The notes under the pieces are model-generated. The model was not told the DNA's origin. It worked only from the letters and a program-made list of their open reading frames with translations, and searched no databases. Positions 1,073 through 13,668 of a stretch of DNA of 13,934 nucleotides are shown piece by piece. The stretch is from positions 265,204 to 279,137 of the forward strand of contig NW_022258259.1 in the NCBI RefSeq assembly GCF_009602425.1, read 5' to 3'. The stretch is from Actinia tenebrosa (Eukaryota). Both the position numbers and the translations under genes were made by a program. Position 1 is the stretch's first letter. Each line of letters begins with the position of its first letter.

Positions 1073-1243
1073 CGTAATGACAAAGATGACCATATCTTCA
1101 AGGAATGCTACTACTCTTATACTGCTGAGGAGGCCATGGGGATATATATGGCTTTACATGACAAAATCAGCAGCCCCCCCTACAGCTTTGAAAGGGAGTG
1201 GTCACGCTTGTCCTACAAAATTGGTTCAGACAAGATGAAGGAA
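1073..1243 (+). CDS. PARP4: PARP4-like exon (first in window; acceptor AG at 1071-1072 is the only AG in the open frame, so start is tentative; donor GTAAGT at 1244). Encodes RNDKDDHIFKECYYSYTAEEAMGIYMALHDKISSPPYSFEREWSRLSYKIGSDKMKE
   Basis: Open frame 1034-1243 ends at a consensus donor (GAA|GTAAGT). Phase 0 joins exactly onto the next exon. The product runs straight into the PARP helical domain encoded downstream. Confidence 0.6.
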
Positions 1244-1302
1244 GTAAGTATAAACTCTTTCATGTACTATTTAACAAATCGCTCATAGATTTCCATTGTC
1301 TG

Positions 1303-1605
1303 GGTTTGTTTCCCACCAAGGGCATTTGATATTTTTCTCTTATTCTCTCTATTTCATTACACATACTGAATGCATCATTTATTACTATTATACTATCCTT
1401 TGTGTACATATTTACGGTGTTCAACTTACCTATAGAGAAAAAATATCGCTCTGGGATCCTCACGAGTACCCTACATTTCATATTCTGGCCGTATTACCAG
1501 AGTGGTTGGTCCTTGTTGTATAGTGGTTAACACTTCAGACTAGAATACCAAAGACATGGGTTCGATTCCCGCCAAGGGCATTTGATATTTTTCTCTTATT
1601 CTCTC
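1303..1605 (+). mobile_element. tRNA-derived SINE (family A). A 5'-truncated copy at about 1303-1393 is followed directly by a second copy at about 1394-1605, forming a tandem dimer
   Basis: A-box-like tatAGTGGTTAAcac and B-box GGGTTCGATTCCC are followed by the body aagggcatttgatatttttctcttattctctctatttcatt. The same about 250-bp sequence recurs at 13085-13315. Confidence 0.75.
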
Positions 1606-1694
1606 AATAAACTGATAGCCATGGATTTATTGTACCAGGAAGACAGTTGCTATGATCTTAATGTGTTCAGCAATATTGCTTTATATATTTACAG

Positions 1695-2012
1695 CAATGC
1701 ATAGAGGTACAGGAAACCAATGATGGTGTTCCACCAATCCTAGAGGTGACCAGTTTAGTTGACTACCTCTGGAAAGAGGCTGTAGGGTGTCTATCAGAAA
1801 CTTTGGCTGTACCTGTTGAAAGCTTGAAACTACAGACAGTACAAGAAGCAGAAGCAGTGCTGGTGTCAATGAAGGAATGTTTGGATAGGAATAATCATGA
1901 TGGACAAGAAATGAGGGAACTGTGGAAGGAGTTTTGTCATCTCATACCACATGAAGAGGAAGAGGTTGTCTTTGAGAAAAGCTTGATTGCTGAAAAACAG
2001 AACCTGTGTCAG
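1695..2012 (+). CDS. PARP4: PARP4-like exon, PARP helical (regulatory) subdomain: QCIEVQETNDGVPPILEVTSLVDYLWKEAVGCLSETLAVPVESLKLQTVQEAEAVLVSMKECLDRNNHDGQEMRELWKEFCHLIPHEEEEVVFEKSLIAEKQNLCQ
   Basis: Acceptor tttatatatttacAG|caa at 1693-1694 and donor CAG|GTATGG at 2013. In-frame stop at 1659-1661 upstream. The motif EFCHLIPHEEE corresponds to the PARP1 helical-domain motif RFYTLIPHDFG. Confidence 0.85.
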
Positions 2013-2081
2013 GTATGGATGATTGGGCGGTAGATGGATGAGTGGATGAATGGAAACATGTATATATGAATGAATGGGTAA

Positions 2082-2112
2082 TATATAAATAGATGGATGG
2101 ATGGATGGATTT
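2082..2112. repeat. (GGAT)n microsatellite, in GATG/GAATG-rich surroundings from 2020 to 2115
   Basis: tagatggatggatggatggatgga. Confidence 0.85.
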
Positions 2113-2426
2113 GATTTTGCAGGTACTTGTTGTATGACAATGTGAGACTTTCACAGGCTCTAGCTAAGTGAAATTCTAAAATTGAATTTGAAAAGAAAGA
2201 AAGAAAGAATGAAATACTGATAAATAAAAATTGTAAATTAGTATTTAAAAAAATTGAAATTCAAAATTAAGGCATCTAACCTGGTGAAAGTCCAGAAATT
2301 ATATTTAAGATGGATTATATCATACATTGAAAATGAAGTGAGAAAAAATATAATTGTTAAATTGCATACCAGGCAATAACAAAAATAATTCTTATTAATA
2401 TTTATTTTTGATCTCTGTATATATAG

Positions 2427-2590
2427 CTGATAAGAGATATTGTGACAGTCAGTGAATCAACCAACATGTCTAAAATCAGCAGCCAGATTGCTAAGTACAG
2501 AGCCTTACGGTGCCATATTGAACACTTGGATGAGGGAGAGGAGGAGTTTGTGAAGATTAAAGAGTCTGTGATGTCAAGCCTGACTGATGG
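2427..2590 (+). CDS. PARP4: PARP4-like exon, helical domain continued: LIRDIVTVSESTNMSKISSQIAKYRALRCHIEHLDEGEEEFVKIKESVMSSLTD(G)
   Basis: Acceptor ctctgtatatatAG at 2425-2426 and donor GG|GTAAGG at 2591. Ends in phase 2, and the carried GG plus the C of the next exon gives Gly. Too short for the 60-aa ORF track but open in frame. Confidence 0.8.
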
Positions 2591-2765
2591 GTAAGGTTTG
2601 AAAGATGAAATATAAAAAGGAGTAATTTATGAATTTATGAGACTTCATAAGAGTGGGAAAGGATACTAAACTATAGGTACATATGGTATTCATGTCAGTA
2701 TCCAGTCAAACACCCAAAGTCAACTAACATGAATGAGTTGATAATTGGACAAGTGGACTGTAAAC

Positions 2766-3035
2766 TGCAGGCCCGTAGCTAGGGTGGGTGCAGGGGGTGT
2801 GTTCGCACCCCCCCCCCCCCCCCCCCCCCTAAACGGCCTCTTTTTAAGCAAGTGAGATTTTGGCTGGTATGATATTTTCACGTAAAACCAAGTAAAAAAA
2901 ATCAATTTTACTTTAATAATTTATCTATACCTATGCATCCTATGGGACTTTTAAAAAATAAAGTAATACATGGTTGGTCCACTTTTTGTAAATTAGCACC
3001 CCCCCAACAAAAATCCTAGCTACGGGCCTGAAACC
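2766..3035. mobile_element. MITE-like element with 16-bp perfect terminal inverted repeats (caggcccgtagctagg / cctagctacgggcctg) and an internal 22-nt poly-C tract
   Basis: The TIRs lie at 2768-2783 and 3017-3032. Imperfect sub-terminal inverted similarity extends about 35 bp. Poly-C runs 2808-2829. Confidence 0.6.
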
Positions 3036-3368
3036 AGTATGATATTCATCTTTTATGAGATAGCAAACATAGTAAGCATGGCTAAGGAAAGACATTTTAG
3101 CTATCCTTTTAAAACCAAATGGGATCTTTGTTATTGCAATAACCCAGTGCAGTGTCAGATGTGAGTATGATGGGTCAAAATTGCAGCTTCACATTATTGT
3201 CTAGCTTTTGATGTGGAAACCTGAACATAATCGCGATACTTTTAACCAACATCAATATAAATAAATGTTTTTAAATCCAACTTTACCACTTTGAGGTGGG
3301 TGGAAAGCCTTACAGGTCTGCAGCCCAATTACAAGGCAACCAATAGATCAAATTAGAATGTGGAAGCT

Positions 3369-3540
3369 GATTTTTGTTGAGGGAGAAAAACAAGAGAACC
3401 TGGAGAAAAACCCTTGAAGGAATCCTGAGAGAACCAACAAACCACTCAAGTCACATACTACACCGAGCCAGGTGGGGCTCCAACCCAGGTCTCATTGGCG
3501 AGAGGCGTGCAAACTTACCATTACAGCACCAGTGCTTCCC
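3369..3540 (-). mobile_element. tRNA-derived SINE (family B), minus orientation, copy 1
   Basis: Reverse complement reads as a tRNA-like head followed by a conserved central block (gagaacctggagaaaaaccc..gagagaaccaacaaac on the plus strand). Shared with copies at 6014-6158 and 7955-8110. Confidence 0.65.
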
Positions 3541-3719
3541 ATAGATTATGCCTGTATTTACCAATTTAGTAGTTTACCAATTTTTTGATGAGTAGACTAA
3601 TGCTTGCTGCCCATGAAATGTTTCCTTGGACAATATTATCAATATTAGTTGCAGTGCAAGTGAATCTGTTTCATCTGTGGAAAAAACAAACTTTATTAAC
3701 TTTTTAAATTTTTTTCCAG

Positions 3720-3822
3720 CTCAATCAGAGTTTTGAATATTTTTTCCCTTGATCGCCCAGTGGAAGAAAGTAACTTCACCCATCACCTTGACAACAAGAA
3801 ACTTCTTTATCATGCATCAAGA
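3720..3822 (+). CDS. PARP4: PARP4-like exon, start of ART catalytic fold with the H of the H-Y-E triad: (G)SIRVLNIFSLDRPVEESNFTHHLDNKKLLYHASR
   Basis: Acceptor tttttccAG|c at 3718-3719 and donor AGA|GTAAGG at 3823. VLNIFSLDR and LLYHASR match PARP1 VIDIFKIER and LLWHGSR. The phase joins exactly to exon 3. Confidence 0.85.
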
Positions 3823-3989
3823 GTAAGGAATTGAATTGAGAGATTATGCATTCATTAATGTAATTGTCTTCTGGCTGTCCCACTATTTTTGACATATATT
3901 AGTTATTATGTATATGTATAAGAAGATGTAACTAGCTAAAAACTAGTGTGAGCTGCGTCAGTGTTTTTAATAAAACAGTAATGATGAAA

Positions 3990-4136
3990 AGGTAAATTAT
4001 ACACCGTGAAAAAGATGAAAAAACTTACTGACATTTCGGACACTAGTCCTTCGTCGGAGTAAAAGAGGGATATGAGCGCTCTGAGGAATTAGTGGATTTA
4101 GCGCTATATAAATAAATATTATTATTATTATTATAT
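3990..4136 (+). mobile_element. Candidate retroposon or SINE 3' end terminating in an (ATT)n tail
   Basis: A non-AT-rich block (ttcggacactagtccttcgtcggagtaaaagagggatatgagcgctctgaggaattagtggatttagcgctatataaataaat) is followed immediately by attattattattattat. No second copy in the window to confirm it. Confidence 0.3.
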
Positions 4137-4411
4137 GTAAACTATACTCGTTCCCAATATGGCACACTCTCACTCACACACACTACCACTACATTCATTA
4201 TTTTTATGGCTACAACTCTCAACTCACTTGCTGATTTTCATTGAGTAAGGAGAATCTGGAGAAACCCCTTGTGGGAAGAAGAGAACTTTTTGCATTCACA
4301 GTCAAACAACTATTTTATCACTACACCATTTCCCTTTTGACCAATTATGTTCATAAGTTGTTATACAGTTGACCCTCAGTTGACTTTAAACATAAAAATT
4401 ATGTTTTTCAG

Positions 4412-4440
4412 GTCAGTAATTTTGTGGGAATCCTTTCAAG
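4412..4440 (+). CDS. PARP4: PARP4-like micro-exon: VSNFVGILS(R), corresponding to PARP1 TTNFAGILSQG
   Basis: Acceptor atgtttttcAG at 4410-4411 and donor AAG|GTAAGT at 4441. 29 nt, ends in phase 2. Confidence 0.8.
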
Positions 4441-4519
4441 GTAAGTAGCTTCTGTTCTAGTTCTTTAAAGTGTTGTTTTGAATGTATAATATCATGAGAC
4501 TGTGTTTTTTTTCTCATAG

Positions 4520-4618
4520 AGGTCTTCTCCTTCCCAAGATTGTTGTAGATGATTTTGGTGGCAAAAGATCAGATCCAGGAATGCTTGGGAGTGGTATCTA
4601 CTTTGGAAGTTCAGCAAG
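4520..4618 (+). CDS. PARP4: PARP4-like exon with the GIYF motif (Y of the triad): (R)GLLLPKIVVDDFGGKRSDPGMLGSGIYFGSSA(S)
   Basis: Acceptor tttttttctcatAG at 4518-4519 and donor CAAG|GTACCA at 4619. GSGIYFGSS corresponds to PARP1 GKGIYFADM. Confidence 0.85.
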
Positions 4619-4636
4619 GTACCATTTTATGCTTAA

Positions 4637-4800
4637 ATACCACTGTAATTGTTGATGATGATGATGAAACTGAAAAGATTGAAAATAATGGGGGTGATGA
4701 TGATGGTGATTGTGGTAATTGATGATAGTAAAGATGATGATGATAGTAATGATGGTGATGATGATAGTGTTCAGGATTATTTAATGATGATGGTGGTGGT
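4637..4800. repeat. GAT/GGT-rich imperfect trinucleotide minisatellite, (GATGAT/GGTGAT)n
   Basis: gatgatgatgatga..ggtgatgatgatggtgat..gatgatgatagtaatgatggtgatgatgat. Lies 20 bp after the exon 6 donor. Confidence 0.8.
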
Positions 4801-4878
4801 AATGCTGTATTTATGAAAGTATTTGATGAGTTATACAAAAATTATTATATAATGATATGACCATTGATAATCTGATCA

Positions 4879-5036
4879 ATAGAGGCTTTGCACCGTGATG
4901 GCAGCCATGACAGGGGGCACAACAATGGAGTCGTACTCCCCTGGGAAACAGAATTCTTTCTGATGTAAATTTGATTAGACCAGATTCAATTGTTCCTGCC
5001 TCCTGTCATGGCTGTGCTATCACATGATTGGTGCAA
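4879..5036. mobile_element. Palindromic MITE, family P, copy 1
   Basis: Long TIRs (gcaccgtgatggcagccatgacagg ... cctgtcatggctgtgctatcacatgattggtgc). The internal 80 bp is about 90% identical to the copy at 9578-9745. Confidence 0.7.
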
Positions 5037-5270
5037 ATTAGCTTCTATAAGTATTCAGTCAAGACTTTCAGGTTAAGACTTTCAGATATATATAAGCACC
5101 ATGATGACATTTGCTTAAACACCTTTAACAGCATTAGAGAAGAGGATAAGCGTAAACTCAGAAAGCTTTTGCCGCCAGCGTTTGACTCGTGTTACAAGCT
5201 GAGACATGCCCCCCTGGGGGGGGGGTACTCTTGCCCGTTTAGGGCAGGGATGTGCCGCTGAGCCTTCTGA

Positions 5271-5448
5271 ACCCTGACCTTGTTCCAGAGTAAAATCGCT
5301 GAAATTCATACCCTGTTCCAGAGCAAGACTGCTGAAAATCATACCCTGTTCCGGTATTGCGAAAATAGATACCCTGTTCCAGAGCGAGTGCCATTTTATA
5401 TACCTTGTTCCAGAGTAGAATCCCTGAAAACCATACCCTGTTTGGCCG
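5271..5448. repeat. Minisatellite of about six units of 28-33 bp (ATACCCTGTTCCAGAG-N8-10-CTGAAAATC)
   Basis: Directly visible periodic recurrence of ataccctgttccagag. It accounts for the repetitive minus-strand ORFs at 5115-5466. Confidence 0.8.
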
Positions 5449-5532
5449 CATGTACCCATATAGCAATGTATTTTAGTAGGCTATCTATCTAGTTCATAAA
5501 GGTCTTATGGCTTTATATATGGTATCTTTCAG

Positions 5533-5614
5533 CACCAGTGCAAAGTACTCAGCACGTGGTTCCATGGGCTCCAGATTCATGCTCATTAATGAAGTAGCTT
5601 TAGGTAGAACCAAG
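5533..5614 (+). CDS. PARP4: PARP4-like exon: (S)TSAKYSARGSMGSRFMLINEVALGRTK, corresponding to PARP1 SKSANYCHTS...LILLGEVALG
   Basis: Acceptor ggtatctttcAG at 5531-5532 and donor AAG|GTAGGT at 5615. The phase is consistent with exon 6. Confidence 0.85.
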
Positions 5615-5740
5615 GTAGGTTACTATATCCCTCACTAACCCACACAAGTTGTCACTCGGTGTAAATATAACACAGTTGCAAATACTTTGATAAAGGGCTA
5701 CCTTTCTTCATAATTATATTTCATATGTTTTTGTTGGTAG

Positions 5741-5839
5741 AGATACAGATACTTCGAAAAAGGACTAACAGCTGCTCCAGAAGGTTATCATAGTACTCAT
5801 GGTGTTGCAGAATCCAACCAAGAGACATCAGATTTCAAG
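5741..5839 (+). CDS. PARP4: PARP4-like exon: RYRYFEKGLTAAPEGYHSTHGVAESNQETSDFK
   Basis: Acceptor tttttgttggtAG at 5739-5740 and donor AAG|GTATAA at 5840. 33 codons in phase 0. Corresponds to the PARP1 region LPKGKHSVKGLGKTTPDP. Confidence 0.8.
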
Positions 5840-6013
5840 GTATAACTTAAAGTGAGAAGCTTTATTTCAATAACCCATGTCGCATGGCTCTCAACCTTTA
5901 AAACCAGTTAGAAAGTGCATTTAAAAAAATGAAAATATAATATGAAATAAATGGGAATTAACAGTGGTTCTAGAGTGGCTCTTCCATTGGATTCCAGTTG
6001 GAATTTAGAAGTT

Positions 6014-6158
6014 AATTTTTATGGAGGGAGAACCTAGAGAAAAACCTTTGAAGTACAGGAGAGACCCAACAAGCTACTTTACTTACATAGGAGGCTGAAT
6101 TCAGGAATGGACATAGGTCGGCTTGGTGAGAGGCGAGCCCTCACAACCTGTAGTTCCC
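6014..6158 (-). mobile_element. tRNA-derived SINE (family B), copy 2, more diverged
   Basis: Shares ggagggagaacctagagaaaaacctttgaag..gagagacccaacaag..ggtgagaggcgagc with the other two copies. Confidence 0.55.
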
Positions 6159-6191
6159 TAAATTAATTAATGTTGTCTGTAATGTTGACAG

Positions 6192-6235
6192 GATGATGAA
6201 TTTGTTATCTACAACACTAACCAGCAAAGAATGAG
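6192..6235 (+). CDS. PARP4: PARP4-like exon with the catalytic Glu: DDEFVIYNTNQQRM(R), corresponding to PARP1 YNEYIVYDIAQVNLK
   Basis: Acceptor aatgttgacAG at 6190-6191 and donor GAG|GTAAGT at 6236. 44 nt, ends in phase 2. Confidence 0.8.
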
Positions 6236-6505
6236 GTAAGTATTAAGGCAGGTTATAATTAGTTTAATATCTTAAGGGGGTCTTGCCTATAACAGACTCG
6301 GTTGCTATGGATGGATTTAAATGTTCAAAAAGGGTTTCTTACATTTTAAAACCTCAATCATTATATAAAACCAAATGCTGACGGATCATTTTCAAAGTGC
6401 AATGATGTCATCACTAGTACTTAACCTATGACATCATTATTTTGTCTCAGTTTAAACCCAAAATATATCTGGGCTGATCTAAGTCAAAACATGAATAACT
6501 CACAA

Positions 6506-6546
<41 letters not shown>

Positions 6547-6560
6547 TAGATAGATAGATA
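6506..6560. repeat. (CAGA)n(TAGA)n microsatellite; on the minus strand this is a (CTAT)n(CTGT)n tail abutting the LINE 3' end
   Basis: Directly visible as agacagacagaca...gatagatagatag. Confidence 0.9.
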
Positions 6561-7415
6561 GATAGATTCCTTTATTTAAACACGGACGTCTCATCAGTAA
6601 AAATACATAAATATAAAAATGCAAACAAAATTAAATACAATGAATTACAAAAACAAATTTAAATAACTGCTTTCCATGAGTGCCGTGTGAAGCTTAGTCC
6701 TGGTTCGTAGAAGAAATACTTTTTGCAACCAGACTTGAAGGCCTTTAGGGACTTGGCCGTTCTTAATTCGGTCGGCAATTTAAACCATTCCATAAGGAGG
6801 CTCCTGAATAGCTAAAACTTTTTTTCAAAGAATTTGTTTGTGGCAACGGGAGGGCAAGCTTTCCAACAGTGTCCCTCAGAGAATAACTATTAATGCTAGA
6901 ACTATTTACAATTTTCGCATAAAGATAACCAGGAGCTAAGTTATGTACTGATTTATAGACCATACCAGTAGCTAAACGCATTTGTCATTCGGTCTCGAGT
7001 TTAGGCCTTCAAAATGCTAGAGTACAAACACTATAAGTGTGTAACATAAATACCACTAAATACTGCTAAATTATGCTAATCCTGTTGTTTTCTATTGTTT
7101 AATTTTTAGTGTTTGCACTCTATCACCATCAGAATCATAACTTGAATGTTTAACGATACGAGCAGCACGATTCTGAAGCTTTTGAAGCTTGGTGGCCGAA
7201 GACTTGCCATAGTTTCCCCAAACCTCATTACAATAATCAAAATTAGGTTGAATCAGGGAATTCTAAATAATTATTAATTTTCGAAAGGAACAAAACAACA
7301 AGGAAAGCTTTAAAGCCCCAATACTGGAAGCAATTTTTTTGTAAAGCTTGTCAATTTGTTCCTTCCAAGAAAGGTTTTGATCAATGATCACACCTAAGGC
7401 CTTAGTAGAAGGTAC
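6561..7415 (-). mobile_element. 5'-truncated non-LTR retrotransposon fragment (CR1/L2/RTE-type reverse transcriptase C-terminal region plus 3' UTR)
   Basis: Minus-strand translation gives LGVIIDQNLSWKEQIDKLYKKIASSIGALK, then IQPNFDYCNEVWGN..KLQKLQNRAARIV, then RDTVGKLALPLPQTNSLKKSFSYSGASLWNGLN. These fit the conserved CR1/L2-type C-terminal motifs (L.YC..VW, VQ.RA.R.I, SF..R....WNSLP). Stops and frameshifts interrupt it. It ends in a microsatellite tail. Confidence 0.75.
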
Positions 7416-7575
7416 CTATTTGAAAGACGAGCCATTGATCACTGAAAGAATATCTGGGCTAATCAAAGTCGGGGCAGGCTAACTCAGATCAAATTGGATT
7501 AATTAACAATTATAATTAACAACTTTTAAATCCTAATAAGGCTTTTGCCTGATTTTTTTTGTTTTCTTTTATTAG

Positions 7576-7694
7576 GTACCTTGTGGAATTTAGCCTGGAT
7601 GGAGAGTATGTACGCAAGCGTCATATTGATTTTGCTCTTATGTCCAACCTTGAACAAGAAGATGAACCATTAGCACTGACACAACCTGATGAAG
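7576..7694 (+). CDS. PARP4: PARP4-like exon, end of the catalytic domain plus linker: (R)YLVEFSLDGEYVRKRHIDFALMSNLEQEDEPLALTQPDE(D)
   Basis: Acceptor ttttgttttcttttattAG at 7574-7575. RMRYLVEFSL corresponds to PARP1 LKYLLKLKF. The donor is placed at GAAG|GTACTA (7695) because only this phase-1 end joins in frame to the next, VIT-encoding exon. The frame also stays open to a TAA at 7874-7876, a possible read-through. Confidence 0.65.
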
Positions 7695-7954
7695 GTACTA
7701 CAGATGAAAATTTCCTTCGTGCGTTTTACTGCTTTGAAAGATTTTCACTTTTATTGCCTGTACTTTTGCCACAACCTGTTACATTAACCAATGGTTATAA
7801 TGGTTATACTCCTCATGGTTATAAATTGCGCGGCAGGATTATTGCTGCCATTCTGAATTTCAATTTATCACTATAAAAAATACCAAAACTCTGATTTTTC
7901 ACCCCTAAGAGGTATGTCGAGCATACCCGATACTTTTAGCCTGGGGTATCTTCC

Positions 7955-8110
7955 CATTTGTGGAGGAAGGAAAACCGGAGAACCTGGAAAAAAAACCTCG
8001 AAGCACAGGAGAGAACCAACAAACAACTTTACTCACATATGACCCCGAGCTTGGTGGGGATCGAACGCGGGTCGCATGATGAGAGGCGAGCGAACTTACC
8101 GCTACACCGC
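7955..8110 (-). mobile_element. tRNA-derived SINE (family B), copy 3, best-preserved head
   Basis: Reverse complement GCGGTGTAGCGGTAAGTTCGCTCGCC...GCGACCCGCGTTCGATCCCCACC carries an A box (TAGCGGTAAG) and a B box (GTTCGATCC). The central block matches copies 1 and 2. Confidence 0.7.
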
Positions 8111-8272
8111 TTTAGTAAATATTATGCTTATACTTCAAATCTAGATATGTCAGTCATCTTTCGTTTTCTTTTCTCACCTTCCTATTTGTTTGTTTGTTTG
8201 TTTGACTATCGCTTTCAACTGTTTGTTTTTTGTTCATTTATCATTCATTAATTCATTCCATTTTTCAAACAG

Positions 8273-8409
8273 ACATAGATCTGTCTGATGTGACATCAAT
8301 AGTAGACCCTCTGTCTAAAGTAAAGGCAGGTCTTAAGGGCAGTGGTGATCAACCAGTACCTCTACAAGCTGTCCATGTTAGAGCAAAACTACTGGATCTT
8401 GTTGCACAG
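8273..8409 (+). CDS. PARP4: PARP4-like exon, start of VIT domain: (D)IDLSDVTSIVDPLSKVKAGLKGSGDQPVPLQAVHVRAKLLDLVAQ
   Basis: Acceptor ccatttttcaaacAG at 8271-8272 and donor CAG|GTAACA at 8410. The last 30 nt of this exon and its donor are copied three times in tandem in the downstream intron. Confidence 0.75.
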
Positions 8410-8650
8410 GTAACAATCTAACTATCCCTTGTGGGGGAGTGAGGGGTGTGTGCACATTAGAGCAAAACTACTGGATCTTGTTGCACAGGTAACAATCTAA
8501 CTATCCCTTGTGGGGGAGGGAGGGGTTTGTGCACATTAGAGCAAAACAACTGGATCTTGTTGCACAGGTAACAATCTAACTATCCCTTGTGGGGGAGGGA
8601 GGGGTTTGTGCACATTAGAGCAAAACTACGATCTTGTGGTTCCGGTAACA
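8380..8650 (+). repeat. Tandem array of a 79-bp unit (about 3.4 copies) that duplicates the last 30 nt of exon 11 plus its GTAACA donor and about 49 nt of intron
   Basis: Units at 8380-8458, 8459-8537, 8538-8616 and a partial one from 8617 are each agagcaaaactactggatcttgttgcacaggtaacaatctaactatcccttgtgggggag[tg]gaggggt[gt]tgtgcacatt, differing by only a few substitutions. Confidence 0.9.
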
Positions 8651-8746
8651 AATTATAACCATTTGATTCACCGAAAGTGGATATCCTGTCTGACAACTTA
8701 ATTTCACTTTTTCATCATCTTTCTCACAATTCTTTTGCTATCCAAG

Positions 8747-8831
8747 GTGGTTGTATTACAATCCTACAAGAACAACAGTACTCTTTCTATTGAAGCAAAA
8801 TATGTCTTCCCCTTGGACGATAAGGCTGCAG
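8747..8831 (+). CDS. PARP4: PARP4-like exon, VIT domain: VVVLQSYKNNSTLSIEAKYVFPLDDKAA(V)
   Basis: Acceptor ttcttttgctatccaAG at 8745-8746 and donor GCAG|GTATTT at 8832. EAKYVFPLD is the conserved VIT-domain signature shared with the VIT domains of PARP4 and ITIH proteins. Confidence 0.85.
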
Positions 8832-9152
8832 GTATTTCAACTACTCTAGCAATGCAGAATGAATGAACGATTCGCATTTGATGAATACATTTTGTTCTCT
8901 TTAATGTGATAATGTGACGTGTTTTTTTTCTACTATCTTGCACTTTATTAACTTTACTACTGTTTTGTCTTTTACTCCAACGAAGGACTAACTTCCAGAA
9001 CGTTAGTCCCGTTTCCTTTTCCAAACTTTTTACACAGGGTTTAAGTTTGCTTCTTATCAATTTGTGACAATCCCAACTATGAACCCCTAGTCATTATCCG
9101 TTTTGCTTCATAATTGATTGACAAAAACTTTTCCTTTCTGCCTTTTCATCAG

Positions 9153-9286
9153 TATGCGGTTTTGAGGCCTTTATTAATGGTAAACACATTATTGGTGAAG
9201 TCAAAGAAAAAGAACAGGCCCGCAAGGAATACCGGGAAGCCATCAGCCAGGGTCATGGGGCCTACTTGATGGACGAAGAAACACCG
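9153..9286 (+). CDS. PARP4: PARP4-like exon, VIT domain: (V)CGFEAFINGKHIIGEVKEKEQARKEYREAISQGHGAYLMDEETP
   Basis: Acceptor ccttttcatcAG at 9151-9152 and donor CCG|GTGAGG at 9287. Very strong resemblance to the vertebrate PARP4 VIT segment AVCGFEAFINGKHIVGE...QGHGAYLM, recalled from memory. Confidence 0.85.
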
Positions 9287-9577
9287 GTGAGGAGACTGAA
9301 TTGTACCCAATGACATTTTGACACTAGAACCCCTTTGCCTAGACGTGCAATTTATCATGTTTACTAAGAAAGTAAATGTTTGTTTTCTGCGAACATATAG
9401 CAATATTTCGTGAATACACTTTTGGAAGACTAGCAGACACTGTATTAAGGACGTTCATGTGCATTGTTCGCGCGCATCCTGTCTACGCATGAATGAGTGA
9501 GCGCGCGCTCATCGTAATGACGTCATTCCAATGTTTTGATAAGCAAAATAACATGAAAACGTCTTTAATCCCTTAAA

Positions 9578-9745
9578 GAGGCTTTACAACATCACGTGAT
9601 GGCAGCCATGACAGGAGGCACAACAATGGAGTCGTACTCCCCTGTGAAACAGAATTCTTTCTCATGTAAATCAGATTAGACCAGATTCAATTGTTTCTAC
9701 CTCCTGTCATGGCTGCCATCACGTGATGGTGCAGAGCCTCTATAG
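9578..9745. mobile_element. Palindromic MITE, family P, copy 2, better-preserved 40-bp TIRs
   Basis: Left TIR agaggctttacaacatcacgtgatggcagccatgacaggagg and right TIR cctcctgtcatggctgccatcacgtgatggtgcagagcctct. Same internal sequence as copy 1. Confidence 0.75.
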
Positions 9746-9858
9746 CTCTAAAACTAAGTCGGGGACCTCCCTTTTTCATTTCATTTTTTGAAAGAACTTT
9801 ATAATACCCAACCTTAGAGGGAAGATGAAAATAATCTGGCGATACACATTTTATGCAT

Positions 9859-10048
9859 AATAAGCCTGAAGCGAGATAACGGTTAACCCCCGACTCTATA
9901 CCATAATAGTTTTTGAAATTCTTTCATATTAAAATTTTTGATTCCTTAGAGAATACAGGAACAATAGTCATAATTAAAGAACAAAAGCAATGTGAAAAGG
10001 ATTATGGTCTAGAGATGGGGGTAAAACGTCATCTCGCTTCAGGCTTAT
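9859..10048. mobile_element. Second MITE in intron 13, with about 33-bp TIRs (aataagcctgaagcgagataacggttaaccccc / gggggtaaaacgtcatctcgcttcaggcttatt)
   Basis: The inverted repeat is visible in sequence, with about 120 bp of AT-rich internal sequence. It sits 114 bp downstream of family-P copy 2. Confidence 0.6.
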
Positions 10049-10340
10049 TGGAATAGAAGTTCATGTAACGTGAAGGCTCCAAGTCCACTTTTGTTGTAAT
10101 ATCATTTTATATTTCTAACTTTTTAACACAAATTTTAAAAGCGAACTAACTATTTCATTATTTTCTAAAATTCTGAAATTATTTTATCAGTAAAATATGG
10201 CTTGTTTTTGACAGCTTTCCATGCATGTCTACGTTGTTCGCGCGTCAGTTTTTACCGTAAAAAGGACGAACTTCCACGCATTCTGACGGCTTAACAAAAT
10301 ATGATGATGGAAACTTTAGTCTTCTACGCAGCTGCTATTA

Positions 10341-10398
10341 GTGTCGTCACGCAACGCTTTTTCCCCTGTGTTGGAGAGTGAGCGTTGTGTGACGACAC
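10341..10398. repeat. Hairpin-forming inverted repeat, 18-bp arms (agtgtcgtcacgcaacgct / agcgttgtgtgacgacac) with a 22-nt spacer
   Basis: Direct reading, one mismatch between the arms. Confidence 0.6.
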
Positions 10399-10711
10399 AT
10401 GAACCTCAAGCATAATGACATTTCATACCTACACTACCACAATCCCTTTCGGTAGCTTTGTTGGTATTCTCAAATTAGTTTGAATTCATTGAATATAAAC
10501 AAATTTTGAAAAGGATTGTGTTGTTTTTGGTATAAAGTGTTGTTTCGTTGTGTTGTTGTGTTGTGTTGTTTTTGGTATAAAGTGTCTTAGATAGGGTAGA
10601 ATCTATTGAGAGAATATTAGCCGCTTAAGTTTCAAGAACTTGTACGTTTTGTCATTTCGTAAAACACATTTGGTCTGGCAAGTTTAAAAGTCAAATTTGC
10701 ATTGAATTTTA

Positions 10712-10925
10712 CCAAGAGAGCATAAATAAGAGAGGGAAACTTCTTAATAACGCGCGCGCCATGTATATTCCCGCTTAGGCTATTTTTAGTAACCGGATGC
10801 AGTTACAATTTCGCCTTTCCCTATTCTCGTGCGTCATCAACTTGCGCGCGTGTGCTCTTTCCGTTCCGTGTTTAGTGATCAAAACAATAAATAGAAGTTT
10901 CCCTCTCTCATTTATGCTCTCTTGG
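10712..10925. mobile_element. MITE with 32-bp TIRs (ccaagagagcataaataagagagggaaacttc / gaagtttccctctctcatttatgctctcttgg), flanked on both sides by TTTTA
   Basis: One mismatch between the TIRs. The interior is CpG-rich (cgcgcgcgcc, cttgcgcgcgtgtgc). The possible 3-5 bp target-site duplication is TTTTA or TTA. Confidence 0.7.
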
Positions 10926-11205
10926 TTTTACTAGAAGAGGTTTTGGACTGCTTTGCATACGCACTTATAGCCTACGCTAACGTTTTTCATCACAATCGTG
11001 TCGAAAATAGCATCTCGTGTTTGCAGTCATGTGCGCAACATCTTTTGAAGGGGTTTTCAGTGACGCAGTTCGTTTCTGTGGGCAACGACATCCAGAGCGG
11101 ATTCATTCATTTTATTTCATTTGGGTATTTCATTTTATTATTTTATTTTATTTCGATGCCCCATTCCGATACCTTTATTAATTCATCCATCCTTTTCGCT
11201 GCAAG

Positions 11206-11370
11206 GACGTGTTTACCGTCAGTGTTGGCAATCTCCCTCCCAATGCAAGTGTCCTGATCAAAATCACCCACATAGTAGAGCTGGCCGTGGAGGGTGAAAA
11301 CGTCTCCTTCAGTCTACCAGGCAGCGTGGCACCATGGAAACGGAGTCAGGCTCTTGATAGCATCACACAG
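11206..11370 (+). CDS. PARP4: PARP4-like exon, VIT domain: DVFTVSVGNLPPNASVLIKITHIVELAVEGENVSFSLPGSVAPWKRSQALDSITQ
   Basis: Acceptor ccttttcgctgcaAG at 11204-11205 and donor CAG|GTACCT at 11371. 55 codons in phase 0. PDVFTVSVGNLPP...VLIKIT is a hallmark VIT stretch of PARP4. Confidence 0.85.
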
Positions 11371-11449
11371 GTACCTTACACTCAACTCTAGTTCCCTTAT
11401 TAACTTCGAAATATTCATTGGGCTTTTGGCTTCCATCAATCAATAGTTC

Positions 11450-11885
11450 TCTAAGGCCTATGTCGGACTGATGTCTTAGCGAATCTATTAAACATGGCAC
11501 TTTGTTAGGCCTAACCCAAACGTGGAACTGACCATGAATGAATTTAGTCCTGTCGAAAACTATTAATTTGGAAATAGGCTTATGATTAGTACGACGTTTG
11601 CCGCAATTAAGTTCGACCATAGGTTAGAGTCACAACTCAAAGCAAACATTTTCAACAAAATAATTTGTGGAGTATTTTTTGTTGCCCAGTACTTTGTAAA
11701 AATGTTATTGTTACTTCTTATCATAGTTAATGGAGTGGAATGGTTTGGAAACTTGCGCGAGTGAATTAAGATCTAAATTGGTTCGACGCTTGCCGCCACG
11801 TGGGCCCTTAGTCGCCCTATCGACGAACCTATGTTGAATAGATTCGGTGCGAAGTTAGTCCGACGCTTGCCATAGGCCTAACTCA
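11450..11885. repeat. Cluster of at least four degenerate direct and inverted copies of an about 35-bp motif (GTYCGACGYTTGCC...ATAGGCCTAAC) in intron 14
   Basis: The motif appears as ggcctatgtcggact at 11455, ttaggcctaacccaaacg at 11505, agtacgacgtttgccgcaattaagttcgaccatagg at 11589, ggttcgacgcttgccgcc at 11781 and agtccgacgcttgccataggcctaactcagactg at 11857. Confidence 0.45.
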
Positions 11886-12121
11886 GACTGTTGGAAATTT
11901 GATGGACAGAAGGCTGAACGCGAGATAGCGTGCTGCATCTGGTATTGATTTCTAGGTCTCAGTAACATGAAAGGAGCTCTAAACGGTATTACATTGAAAA
12001 AATAATTGCATGTCGTACCGTCTACGTGTGCTGTAAGTCAGTTCTGTAGGTTTCCCACTCATAGGCTATCCATTGTTATGGGAAGCCATTTCAGTGATGT
12101 ATTGATTGTGTTCTTCTGCAG

Positions 12122-12156
12122 ACAGATGTTCATACTGTTAGAGTCGAGGAGGAGAC
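12122..12156 (+). CDS. PARP4: PARP4-like micro-exon: TDVHTVRVEEE(T)
   Basis: Acceptor gtgttcttctgcAG at 12120-12121 and donor GAC|GTAAGT at 12157. 35 nt in phase 0 to 2. Needed to keep the frame between the flanking exons. Confidence 0.7.
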
Positions 12157-12425
12157 GTAAGTTATGTAACGCCCACTAACGTTATTGTCTCATGAGATTT
12201 TCCAAGGTTTTTAGCCTATTGAATACAGTGTAGTCCATACACCAAAAATGATTTCTGAACATTGTGGCCTATTCTATTGCTAACTACCTACCATACAAGG
12301 CTAGATATTTGCGCTCGTAATTCAGTGTCGTGCACCTATTTCAAAAACGTTGTCATCGCCAAAGGCAGAAATGATTTCTTCGACTTCAAACGACGTTGAA
12401 TTATAGTCTCAACGCTAAAGGCGCG

Positions 12426-12651
12426 ATTACACGGAGCAATTTTCTCTGCAACTAGTCTCGCAACGGCGTTGCGGCACAAGTTACATGGAGTATTGCAGCG
12501 TGTAACCTACAGCGTAATTTGAAAACTGTTGCGAGACAAGTTGCAGCAATCGTTGCAATCGTTGCGTCTCCGTTTCACCGCGTAAACACTCTTTCAACTT
12601 GTGTCGCAACCCTGTTGCTAGACGAGTTGCAAAGAAAATTATTCCGCGTAA
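12426..12651. mobile_element. Foldback or MITE-like element with about 55-bp imperfect inverted arms rich in GTTGCR motifs
   Basis: Left arm attacacggagcaattttctctgcaactagtctcgcaacggcgttgcggcacaag. The reverse complement of the right arm is attacgcggaataattttctttgcaactcgtctagcaacagggttgcgacacaag. The centre holds further partial copies (gttgcgagacaagttgcagcaatcgttgcaatcgttgcg). Confidence 0.6.
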
Positions 12652-12996
12652 TGGAAGGTCCATGTTCCGCCGTAAGGTCTATGTTCTTGACAAGAATAAG
12701 TAAGAAGAAACACAAGTCATTCCAGCTATTCCTGGGTCTTGAAATGGCCTATCTCTTATTGCTTTTCGCCTATCGTCTTTGGCGATGACAGCGTGTATAC
12801 GGTTTGTCACAGCTCACCTTACAAAGCTGAGACCGCTAAGGATCATGAGGAACATTTTTTATCCAAGTAAACGGTCTAAGAGTAGTAAAGAGACTACAGT
12901 TCATATAGTATGCGCAACACTCATTGGACTAAAGTTTTTTGGTAAACATGTTTCTGAAGGTTTCGGTTGTTATTAAAGTTGTTTGTACGTTTGTAG

Positions 12997-13078
12997 GAAT
13001 ACTACTATACAGGTTGCCATAGAGATGCCATTTGACATACGATCCATTCAGTCTCCAACACATCCAATTAGAATAAAG
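12997..13078 (+). CDS. PARP4: PARP4-like exon: (T)NTTIQVAIEMPFDIRSIQSPTHPIRIK
   Basis: Acceptor ttgtttgtacgtttgtAG at 12995-12996 and donor AAG|GTAATG at 13079. IEMPF corresponds to the PARP4 motif SIEMPYVIEF. Confidence 0.8.
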
Positions 13079-13084
13079 GTAATG

Positions 13085-13315
13085 TTTCTATCATCTTTAT
13101 TTGTACAACTGTTCCCCGATGGAAGGCATGAGTACCCTACATTTCATATTCCGGCTTGGTTACCAGCGTGGTTGGTCCTTGTGGTGTTGTAGTTAACACA
13201 TCGGACTAGAATACCGAAGACGTGGGTTTGATTCCCGCCAAGGGCATTTGATATTTTTCTCTTATTCTCTCTATTTCATTGCACACACCGAACGCATAAT
13301 TTATTACTACTATAA
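13085..13315 (+). mobile_element. tRNA-derived SINE (family A), full-length-like copy
   Basis: About 90% identical to the 1303-1605 element across the leader, the tRNA-like region (gggtttgattcccgcc) and the body through atttattactactata. Starts within about 10 bp of the exon 16 donor. Confidence 0.75.
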
Positions 13316-13530
13316 CATATTACATTGCATTGTATTGCTGGTTTTCACAACTGCCATCTTGGATTTGTTACTAGATTTTGTTATATCAATCAACCTAGTT
13401 GCCATGTCTTTTGTTATTTCATTCTCCTGAGAATGATTGACAAACAGCAACATGCAAAACATTGCACCATCCCTTATGAGGTTGCAGCACATTTTAAAAC
13501 TTTGTTGTGTTTTTATTTTTACTATGTTAG

Positions 13531-13668
13531 CGAACGGCGACCAAAGCTGTCGTTGAACTGGAACCAGGTCACGTGATGGGCGATGGTTTTCAACTCATCA
13601 TTGGATTGGCTGAAATTCACGTCCCAAGAATGTGGGTGGAGAGTCACGAGACAAAGCATGATAGCGAG
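13531..13668 (+). CDS. PARP4: PARP4-like exon: RTATKAVVELEPGHVMGDGFQLIIGLAEIHVPRMWVESHETKHDSE
   Basis: Acceptor ttttatttttactatgttAG at 13529-13530 and donor GAG|GTCAGT at 13669. 46 codons. VPRMWVE corresponds to vertebrate PARP4 LPRMWVEKHPEKESE. Confidence 0.8.

Follow-up and report, generated by a model that had tools for sequence, protein, structure and literature searches.

Human PARP4 (vault PARP) is among the described systems closest to the locus presented here. Structures are available for the full-length protein (9BW6, 9BW7, 11JF), for the helical domain together with the ART fold (8SX1) and for the ART fold (8SWY). Its catalytic triad consists of H438, Y477 and E547, and a degenerate WGR domain separates BRCT from the helical domain (PMC10711553). 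Although it has an H-Y-E triad, human PARP4 is a mono-ADP-ribosyltransferase, which is accounted for by T484, D545 and a short loop; the same work describes the acceptor-site roles of Lys903, His826 and Met890 in PARP1 (PMC10711553). Vault PARP has been reported across Metazoa and Amoebozoa, and MVP occurs in cnidarians (PMC3762200). Sea urchin vaults show bands of about 200 kDa that 'may be' VPARP (PMC550661), and the MVP residues that bind PARP4 are conserved only in vertebrates; a late recruitment of PARP4 into vaults has been proposed (PMC12280208). Residency of PARP4 in vaults has been shown only in vertebrates, and the evidence from invertebrates is only suggestive.

The window, i.e. the whole stretch of 13,934 nucleotides that was analysed, very probably represents the interior of a protein-coding PARP4 orthologue from an animal. 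All 17 plus-strand exons claimed in the preliminary description were located, with the first base at 1073 and the last at 13668 (Table 1). The predicted junctions are canonical throughout, with 17 AG acceptors and 17 GT donors, and the splice phases agree. At the two ends, the first acceptor and the last donor pair with exons lying outside the window. Joined together, the exons comprise 2004 nt or 668 codons with zero stops, which replaces the length of about 900 residues given before. The probability of such a stop-free stretch by chance is (61/64)^668, or about 1e-14. The G+C content is 43.9 % in the exons vs 37.2 % in the introns. Using three homologues as tblastn queries, 16 of the 17 exons were found independently; the exception is exon 15, which at 35 nt is too short to be detected by tblastn and matches the coral homologues residue for residue in the alignment. 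The motifs quoted in the preliminary description were all recovered (EFCHLIPHEEE, LLYHASR, GSGIYFGSS, DDEFVIYN, EAKYVFPLD, CGFEAFINGKHIIGE, PDVFTVSVGNLPP and VLIKIT).

Table 1. Exons of the PARP4-like gene in the window, with the encoded residues (aa), their content and the supporting evidence.
Feature	Position	Strand	Residues	Content	Evidence
Exon 1	1073..1243	+	1-57	Phase 0; C-terminal end of BRCT-to-helical-domain region	tblastn, coral P0001 aa 201-272: match at 1046-1261, E 2e-13
Exon 2	1695..2012	+	58-163	N-terminal helix, most of PARP_reg domain; EFCHLIPHEEE	tblastn, Pfam
Exon 3	2427..2590	+	164-218	Helical domain end, ART fold start	Pfam, tblastn; junction same as in Acropora gene
Exon 4	3720..3822	+	218-252	Triad His H249 (codon 3811-3813) in LLYHASR	
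Exon 5 (29-nt micro-exon)	4412..4440	+	253-262	VSNFVGILS	tblastn, coral P0001: match at 4409-4441; NFVGILSRG kept across homologues
Exon 6	4520..4618	+	262-295	Triad Tyr Y289 (codon 4599-4601) in GSGIYF; M283	tblastn, coral P0001: 91% identity
Exon 7	5533..5614	+	295-322	Nicotinamide-pocket T296, S297, Y300	
Exon 8	5741..5839	+	323-355	ART fold	Alignment, tblastn
Exon 9	6192..6235	+	356-370	Catalytic Glu E358 (codon 6198-6200) in DDEFVIYN	
Exon 10	7576..7694	+	370-409	ART fold end and variable acidic linker	Alignments
Exon 11	8273..8409	+	410-455	Linker and VIT domain start	Pfam, tblastn
Exon 12	8747..8831	+	456-484	VIT domain; EAKYVFPLD	Pfam, tblastn
Exon 13	9153..9286	+	484-528	VIT domain; CGFEAFINGKHIIGE	Pfam; tblastn, coral P0001: 86% identity
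Exon 14	11206..11370	+	529-583	VIT domain end; DVFTVSVGNLPP, VLIKIT	Pfam, tblastn
Exon 15 (35-nt micro-exon)	12122..12156	+	584-595	TDVHTVRVEEE; corals have TDVQTVKMQDE	
Exon 16	12997..13078	+	595-622	VIT-to-vWA region	Alignment, tblastn
Exon 17	13531..13668	+	623-668	Directly precedes vWA domain; LIIGLAEIHVPRMWVE	tblastn, coral P0001: 72% identity

The domain search returned the order PARP_reg, PARP catalytic and VIT. PARP_reg (PF02877) covers aa 96-179 with 31.1 bits (cut-off 26.8), directly ahead of the ART fold, and the PARP catalytic domain (PF00644) covers aa 202-376 with an E-value of 4e-32. VIT (PF08487) was detected at aa 440-549 with an E-value of 1e-38, 63 residues past the PARP domain and in phase over exons 10-14. 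The homology search gave one collinear match of residues 47-665 to residues 237-852 of human PARP4 (E 2.4e-160, 538 bits). The structures 8SWY and 8SX1 of its ART fold were matched at E-values of 2e-54 and 1e-75, and the helical domain of 8SX1 aligns with the window product. The resemblance to PARP1, PARP2 and PARP3 is limited to about 255 residues of the helical domain and the ART fold with its H-Y-E triad; these proteins have no VIT domain and score far lower than PARP4 (PARP2 with 82 bits and E 2e-22, PARP1 with 63 bits and E 2e-16, PARP3 with 60 bits and E 1e-15). The top matches listed are named PARP4 or PARP4-like, and the matches listed carry PARP and VIT domains wherever they are long enough to show both. 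Both searches thus agree with the earlier reading, in which the gene is PARP4-like, has many exons and encodes VIT behind the catalytic domain. A WGR domain, which this reading had treated as an argument against PARP4, is an unsuitable criterion, because human PARP4 itself has a degenerate one (PMC10711553), and a WGR fold would therefore not count against PARP4 here.

The domain order in invertebrate homologues is BRCT, PARP_reg, PARP, VIT and vWA. The 17 exons encode the putative tail of the WGR-like region, the helical domain, the ART fold, the linker, the VIT domain and a stretch leading toward vWA. Exon 1 aligns with coral and mollusc homologues only at the end of the inter-domain region, and it may correspond to the WGR-like region of human PARP4. 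The BRCT domain found in coral and mollusc homologues would sit upstream of the window, while vWA and any C-terminal MVP-interaction (MINT) domain, which serves in vault docking, would be located downstream. Within the window, tblastn with three full homologues revealed no upstream BRCT or WGR exons before 1046 and no downstream vWA exons after 13668. The vWA domain was found in the homologues P0004, P0005 and P0014, and the window stops at their pre-vWA sequence. The gene runs on past the window, which covers about 40 % of a PARP4-sized protein and leaves the C-terminal third of the gene outside.

The locus is the middle part of an ordinary, intact animal PARP4 gene that is closest to those of reef corals, belongs to an already known family and shows nothing unexpected. 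Among the matches listed, PARP4-like proteins of corals come closest, with E-values from 7e-248 to 8e-170, including Oculina patagonica ACROYT_G021872 (59 % identity), the 'mono-ADP-ribosyltransferase parp4' of Desmophyllum pertusum (58 %) and the 'PARP 4-like' protein of Acropora digitifera (63 %). Since the overall identity is 58-63 %, the corals are different and fairly distant species. In a neighbour-joining tree, the window product is sister to Scleractinia with 99 % bootstrap support, and the identity to corals reaches about 70 % over 385 conserved columns. The animal is thus most likely a cnidarian that falls outside the Scleractinia sampled. The coral PARP4-like proteins also have Met283 and Thr296. 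The PARP4-like gene of Acropora has at least ten intron positions in common with the window, where the introns of the same segment are about twice as long (11.2 kb vs 5.4 kb). The Acropora homologue aligns to residues 342-1239 of human PARP4; at its locus, which was inspected for a MINT domain (residues 1562-1724 in human PARP4), the annotated gene could be traced to human-equivalent residue 1239, and two downstream products are Pro/Ala-rich and of low complexity. PARP4 from mammals and other vertebrates shares about 45-48 % identity with the window product. The human protein resembles it in the order of helical domain, ART fold, linker and VIT, in the triad, in the threonine at the position of PARP1 Lys903, in the aspartate before the glutamate and in the short loop, and differs in having H-G-S for H-A-S, Asn471 for Met283 and Glu544 for Lys355.

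The intact triad had also been described before, and the alignment to human PARP4 confirms it, with H249, Y289 and E358 aligning to H438, Y477 and E547. Among the aligned homologues, the histidine is conserved in 102 of 105, the tyrosine in 108 of 109 and the glutamate in 105 of 112. The NAD+ pocket is intact (H249, S251, Y289, S297, Y300 and E358). T296 is common to 89 aligned homologues and D356 to 100; some gastropod homologues have a lysine at the position of Lys903. The motif around the triad histidine reads H-A-S and not H-G-S, and the middle position across the family is S in 54, A in 29 and G in 20 sequences. In PARP1, the middle position of H-G-S touches NAD+ via the backbone. Judging from these residues, the ART fold would bind NAD+ via H249 and Y289, the nicotinamide pocket would be lined by S297 and Y300, and E358 would activate ADP-ribose transfer to an acceptor protein. 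VIT and vWA would serve as protein-interaction modules. The claim of catalytic competence is supported by the intact triad, but polymerase activity cannot be assumed for a PARP4-type acceptor site.

PARP1 and PARP2 carry Lys903/Lys469 and His826/His394 for chain elongation, and the window protein has neither, with a threonine for Lys903 and no added loop length for His826. Of the PARP1/2-type acceptor site, the methionine alone is present: M283 corresponds to Met890/Met456 and not to Asn471 of human PARP4, so that the acceptor site differs from the human one. Most limiting features of the PARP4 type are kept, i.e. the threonine at the position of Lys903, D356 and the short loop. Here, T296 would replace the chain-elongation lysine of PARP1, and D356 would be the aspartate that clashes with acceptor-site phosphates. 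Because human PARP4 mono-modifies despite its H-Y-E triad and the window keeps most of these features, a polymerase should not be assumed. The predicted enzyme is therefore probably a mono-ADP-ribosyltransferase like human PARP4. A true chain-elongating poly(ADP-ribose) polymerase would be in line with the intact H-Y-E triad, with a PARP1/2-type methionine in place of the asparagine that vertebrate PARP4 carries at the adenine position of the acceptor site, and with the title of the 1999 description of VPARP, which names a poly(ADP-ribose) polymerase (PMC2169495). However, the triad is insufficient for chain elongation, as PARP3 and PARP4 show, and T296 stands for the lysine whose loss turns PARP1/2 mono-ADP-ribosylating (PMC10711553). 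The retention of D356 (human D545) and the lack of added length at the His826 loop in the alignment also make a polymerase unlikely.

The preliminary description went further and concluded that the organism keeps the vault-particle system. The window does not support this, as MINT would be located downstream and the PARP4-binding residues of MVP are conserved only in vertebrates (PMC12280208). That the protein resides in vault particles of this animal is about as likely as not. A different and rather doubtful possibility is that the cnidarian type of PARP4 represents a pre-vault state, in which an enzyme of the BRCT-ART-VIT-vWA type, free in the cytoplasm or nucleus, might be capable of short chain elongation and docking to vaults was added later in vertebrates. 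Such a later addition is a speculation raised in PMC12280208. If the pre-vault reading were true, the partly PARP1-like acceptor site, with Met283 and, in some gastropod homologues, a lysine at the position of Lys903, could permit short chains.

A decaying or non-functional PARP4 copy is very improbable. In this case, the locus would be a pseudogene or a redundant paralogue whose sampled part looks intact by chance. Only part of the gene is seen in the window, two PARP4-like entries are listed for Acropora digitifera (P0004, P0008), so that paralogues may exist in this lineage, and the introns are filled with repeats. Nevertheless, the 668 codons over 17 exons contain neither stops nor frameshifts, the splice dinucleotides are canonical at every exon, all catalytic and pocket residues are conserved, and the best-conserved blocks are 86-91 % identical to corals. 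The tandem duplication of the exon 11 donor, another feature that could point to decay, consists of a 79-bp tandem array at 8378-8651 in which the last 32 nt of exon 11 and the donor recur. Use of the duplicated donors was rejected: read-through of the first donor runs into a TAA stop (8419-8421), and a unit of 79 nt would shift the frame. The abundance of repeats in the introns was seen in blastn self-comparisons with sub-queries. Two intronic tRNA hits were discarded as genes, as both lie at the same position in a repeat, about 150-190 nt long, that introns 1 and 16 share; the 'tRNA-Ser' call also has no long variable arm.

An artefactual frame fusing a neighbouring PARP1-3-type gene with an ITIH-like VIT/vWA gene, to which the weak match of the VIT domain to ITIH4 (E 3e-4) could point, is hardly credible, since human PARP4 aligns collinearly in one stretch through catalytic domain, linker and VIT, the splice phases agree over the catalytic/VIT boundary, the score is 538 bits for PARP4 vs 82 bits for PARP2, and, of the 120 homologues listed, every one long enough to show both domains has them fused in this way. 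ITIH1-4 resemble the window product in the VIT domain and its homologues also in vWA; they are secreted proteins without a PARP domain, and the resemblance of the window product to them is confined to VIT.

The intact PARP4 orthologue described here adds one more invertebrate member with intact catalytic residues to the family, which is of little import beyond annotation. It fits the earlier reports of vault PARP across Metazoa and Amoebozoa (PMC3762200). In addition, it provides a data point on the timing of the vault residency of PARP4, and another on the acceptor-site change between invertebrate and vertebrate PARP4 that bears on mono- vs poly-ADP-ribosylation.

The plus-strand open stretches of the whole window were listed and then joined at AG/GT borders, giving 17 predicted exons, all of them with AG directly before and GT directly after, and with consistent phases. 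The preliminary description had placed the first and last base of the span exactly (1073 and 13668), and all motifs it quoted are present in the joined product. However, its length of about 900 residues was wrong, as the joined exons comprise 2004 nt, a stop-free frame of 668 codons. Coding sequence makes up 16 % of the span, and the G+C content is 43.9 % in exons versus 37.2 % in introns. Using tblastn with coral, snail and mammalian homologues, 16 of the 17 exons were recovered with unchanged coordinates; the remaining one, the 35-nt exon 15, aligns residue for residue with the coral TDVQTVKMQDE. The same three homologues gave no match in the window 5' of 1046 or 3' of 13668, and no other genes were found on either of its strands.

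Features of the window; residues are numbered in the joined product
Feature	Position	Strand	Remarks
Exons 1-6	1073-1243, 1695-2012, 2427-2590, 3720-3822, 4412-4440, 4520-4618	+	AG/GT borders
Exons 7-12	5533-5614, 5741-5839, 6192-6235, 7576-7694, 8273-8409, 8747-8831	+	AG/GT borders
Exons 13-17	9153-9286, 11206-11370, 12122-12156, 12997-13078, 13531-13668	+	AG/GT borders
H249	codon 3811-3813		triad His; human H438
Y289	codon 4599-4601		triad Tyr; human Y477
E358	codon 6198-6200		triad (catalytic) Glu; human E547
S297, Y300	exon 7		human S485, Y488; PARP1 S904 and Y907 positions
79-bp tandem array	8378-8651		3.5 repeats, 94 % identity
tRNA-derived SINE-like repeat	1461-1608 (intron 1), 13127-13274 (intron 16)	+	two copies, 89-91 % identical
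SINE-like repeat tails	1301-1392, 13223-13314
Second short interspersed repeat family	3380-3525, 7964-8106, 6028-6089	+	introns 3, 10, 8
MITE-like element	4881-5028, 9577-9727		two copies, 88 % identical

The annotated PARP4-like gene of Acropora digitifera (contig DF972100.1, 652-20346) has tblastn segment borders at the exon borders of the window for at least 10 junctions, so that intron positions are conserved between the two genes. The Acropora gene is far more compact, with 5.4 kb for a coding segment that takes up 11.2 kb in the window. Downstream of its annotated end, the called products at 26303-26746 and 28380-29240 are Pro/Ala-rich and of low complexity; they might be an unannotated continuation of this gene.

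The identification as a PARP4-like gene was correct. Pfam searches placed PARP_reg at residues 96-179 with 31.1 bits (cut-off 26.8), the catalytic PARP domain at residues 202-376 (E 4e-32) and VIT at residues 440-549 (E 1e-38). Human PARP4 was the top match among all PDB sequences (E 2.4e-160, 538 bits), with residues 47-665 of the query collinear with 237-852, followed by PARP2 (2e-22), PARP1 (2e-16) and PARP3 (1e-15); the match to ITIH4 was confined to the VIT domain (E 3e-4). A search of 5.8 billion proteins listed 120 matches, all carrying VIT and almost all a PARP domain as well; those that have names are PARP4 or PARP4-like. The best listed matches came from Oculina patagonica (59 %, E 7e-248), Desmophyllum pertusum (58 %) and, with 76 % of the query covered, Acropora digitifera (63 %). 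Since the closest identity among the matches listed is at most 69 %, the exact protein of the window is absent from this collection. Invertebrate homologues have the full domain order BRCT, PARP_reg, PARP, VIT and vWA, and the alignment of the Acropora protein covers residues 342-1239 of human PARP4. Over 385 well-aligned columns, identity to the window product is about 70 % for corals, 58-62 % for molluscs, 56 % for Trichoplax and 49-54 % for vertebrates; in a neighbour-joining tree it forms the sister branch of the stony corals (99 % bootstrap support). The window thus most probably comes from a cnidarian that falls outside the Scleractinia sampled. The proposal that a WGR domain would argue against PARP4 is not valid because human PARP4 itself has a degenerate one (PMC10711553). 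The gene is a further member of the well-known PARP4 family.

The H-Y-E triad is intact, as originally described: H249, Y289 and E358 align with H438, Y477 and E547 of human PARP4, and the published numbering of this triad (PMC10711553) is consistent with that in our alignment. Among the aligned residues of the 120 listed homologues, the triad is conserved in 102 of 105 (H), 108 of 109 (Y) and 105 of 112 (E). The residue following the triad His is Ala in the window and varies across the family (S 54, A 29, G 20), so H-A-S is ordinary for PARP4. S297 and Y300 presumably have the nicotinamide-pocket role of their PARP1 counterparts. A pseudogene is unlikely, given the stop-free frame, the canonical splice dinucleotides flanking all 17 exons and the conserved catalytic residues. 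Chimeric joining of two adjacent genes can be ruled out, since one collinear alignment spans the catalytic domain, linker and VIT.

The repeats in the introns are ordinary. The unit of the 79-bp array combines the terminal 32 nt of exon 11 with its GT donor and 47 nt of intron; the donor site of exon 11 is thereby present three times, and the copies show up as weak protein matches (8450-8497 and 8529-8576). Of the three donors, the first alone preserves the frame, as read-through meets a TAA at 8419-8421 and 79 is not divisible by 3. Rfam called tRNAs in both SINE-like copies (1509-1580, 30.6 bits; 13175-13246, 53.3 bits), and ARAGORN reported the latter as tRNA-Ser(AGA). At 72 nt and without a long variable arm, it probably represents the head of a SINE rather than a tRNA gene. 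The long copies of the second short interspersed family are 77 % identical, and the third is a 64-nt fragment. The MITE-like element has terminal inverted repeats of about 50 nt (9574-9623/9695-9744) and is adjoined by a separate hairpin (9859-9924/9984-10049, 80 % complementary). Minus-strand open stretches in intron 9 (6766-6984 and 7095-7262) read NSLIQPNFDYCNEVWG...LQKLQNRAARIV, ...MVYKSVHNLAPGYL...SFSYSGASLWNGL, which we take to resemble the decayed C-terminal tail of a non-LTR retrotransposon ORF2, likely an antisense remnant. Further observations are a G-rich minisatellite with a 20-21-nt unit at the window start (1-102), an (AGAC)15 microsatellite (6508-6566) and, by eye, a run of 22 C (2808-2829) between 16-nt inverted repeats (2767-2782/3015-3030).

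The suggestion that the gene implies a vault-particle system was over-reaching. PARP4 docks on the major vault protein (MVP) via its C-terminal MINT domain, the PARP4-binding MVP residues are conserved in vertebrates only, and a late evolutionary start of PARP4 vault occupancy has been suggested (PMC12280208). Any MINT-encoding part of this gene would lie beyond the window. Cnidarians are reported to have MVP, and vault PARP is reported from across Metazoa and Amoebozoa (PMC3762200). For sea urchin, vault bands near 200 kDa have been described that 'may be' VPARP and TEP1 (PMC550661). It is therefore plausible that the organism has a vault system, but its PARP4-like gene does not imply one.

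Human PARP4 has the H-Y-E residues yet no working acceptor site, owing to T484 at the position of PARP1 K903, a clash of E544/D545 with the phosphates, a short loop that lacks PARP1 H826, N471 replacing Met890, and K516 (PMC10711553). The window product resembles it in T296 (also in 89 homologues) and D356 (also in 100), and its alignment shows no loop insertion of the PARP1 H826 type. It differs in K355 and in M283 (codon 4581-4583), where 15 homologues have Met and 75 have Asn. Based on T296, D356 and the uninserted loop, and despite M283 and K355, we infer with modest uncertainty that the protein would be a mono-ADP-ribosyltransferase; a true polymerase appears improbable. Met at the acceptor-site adenine position is found in PARP1/2 and likewise in the window, corals and some molluscs, whereas vertebrate PARP4 has Asn. 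Two gastropod homologues (Lottia and Candidula) have Lys at the PARP1 K903 position, in contrast to Thr in nearly all other PARP4s. These residues hint that the acceptor site varies among invertebrate PARP4s.
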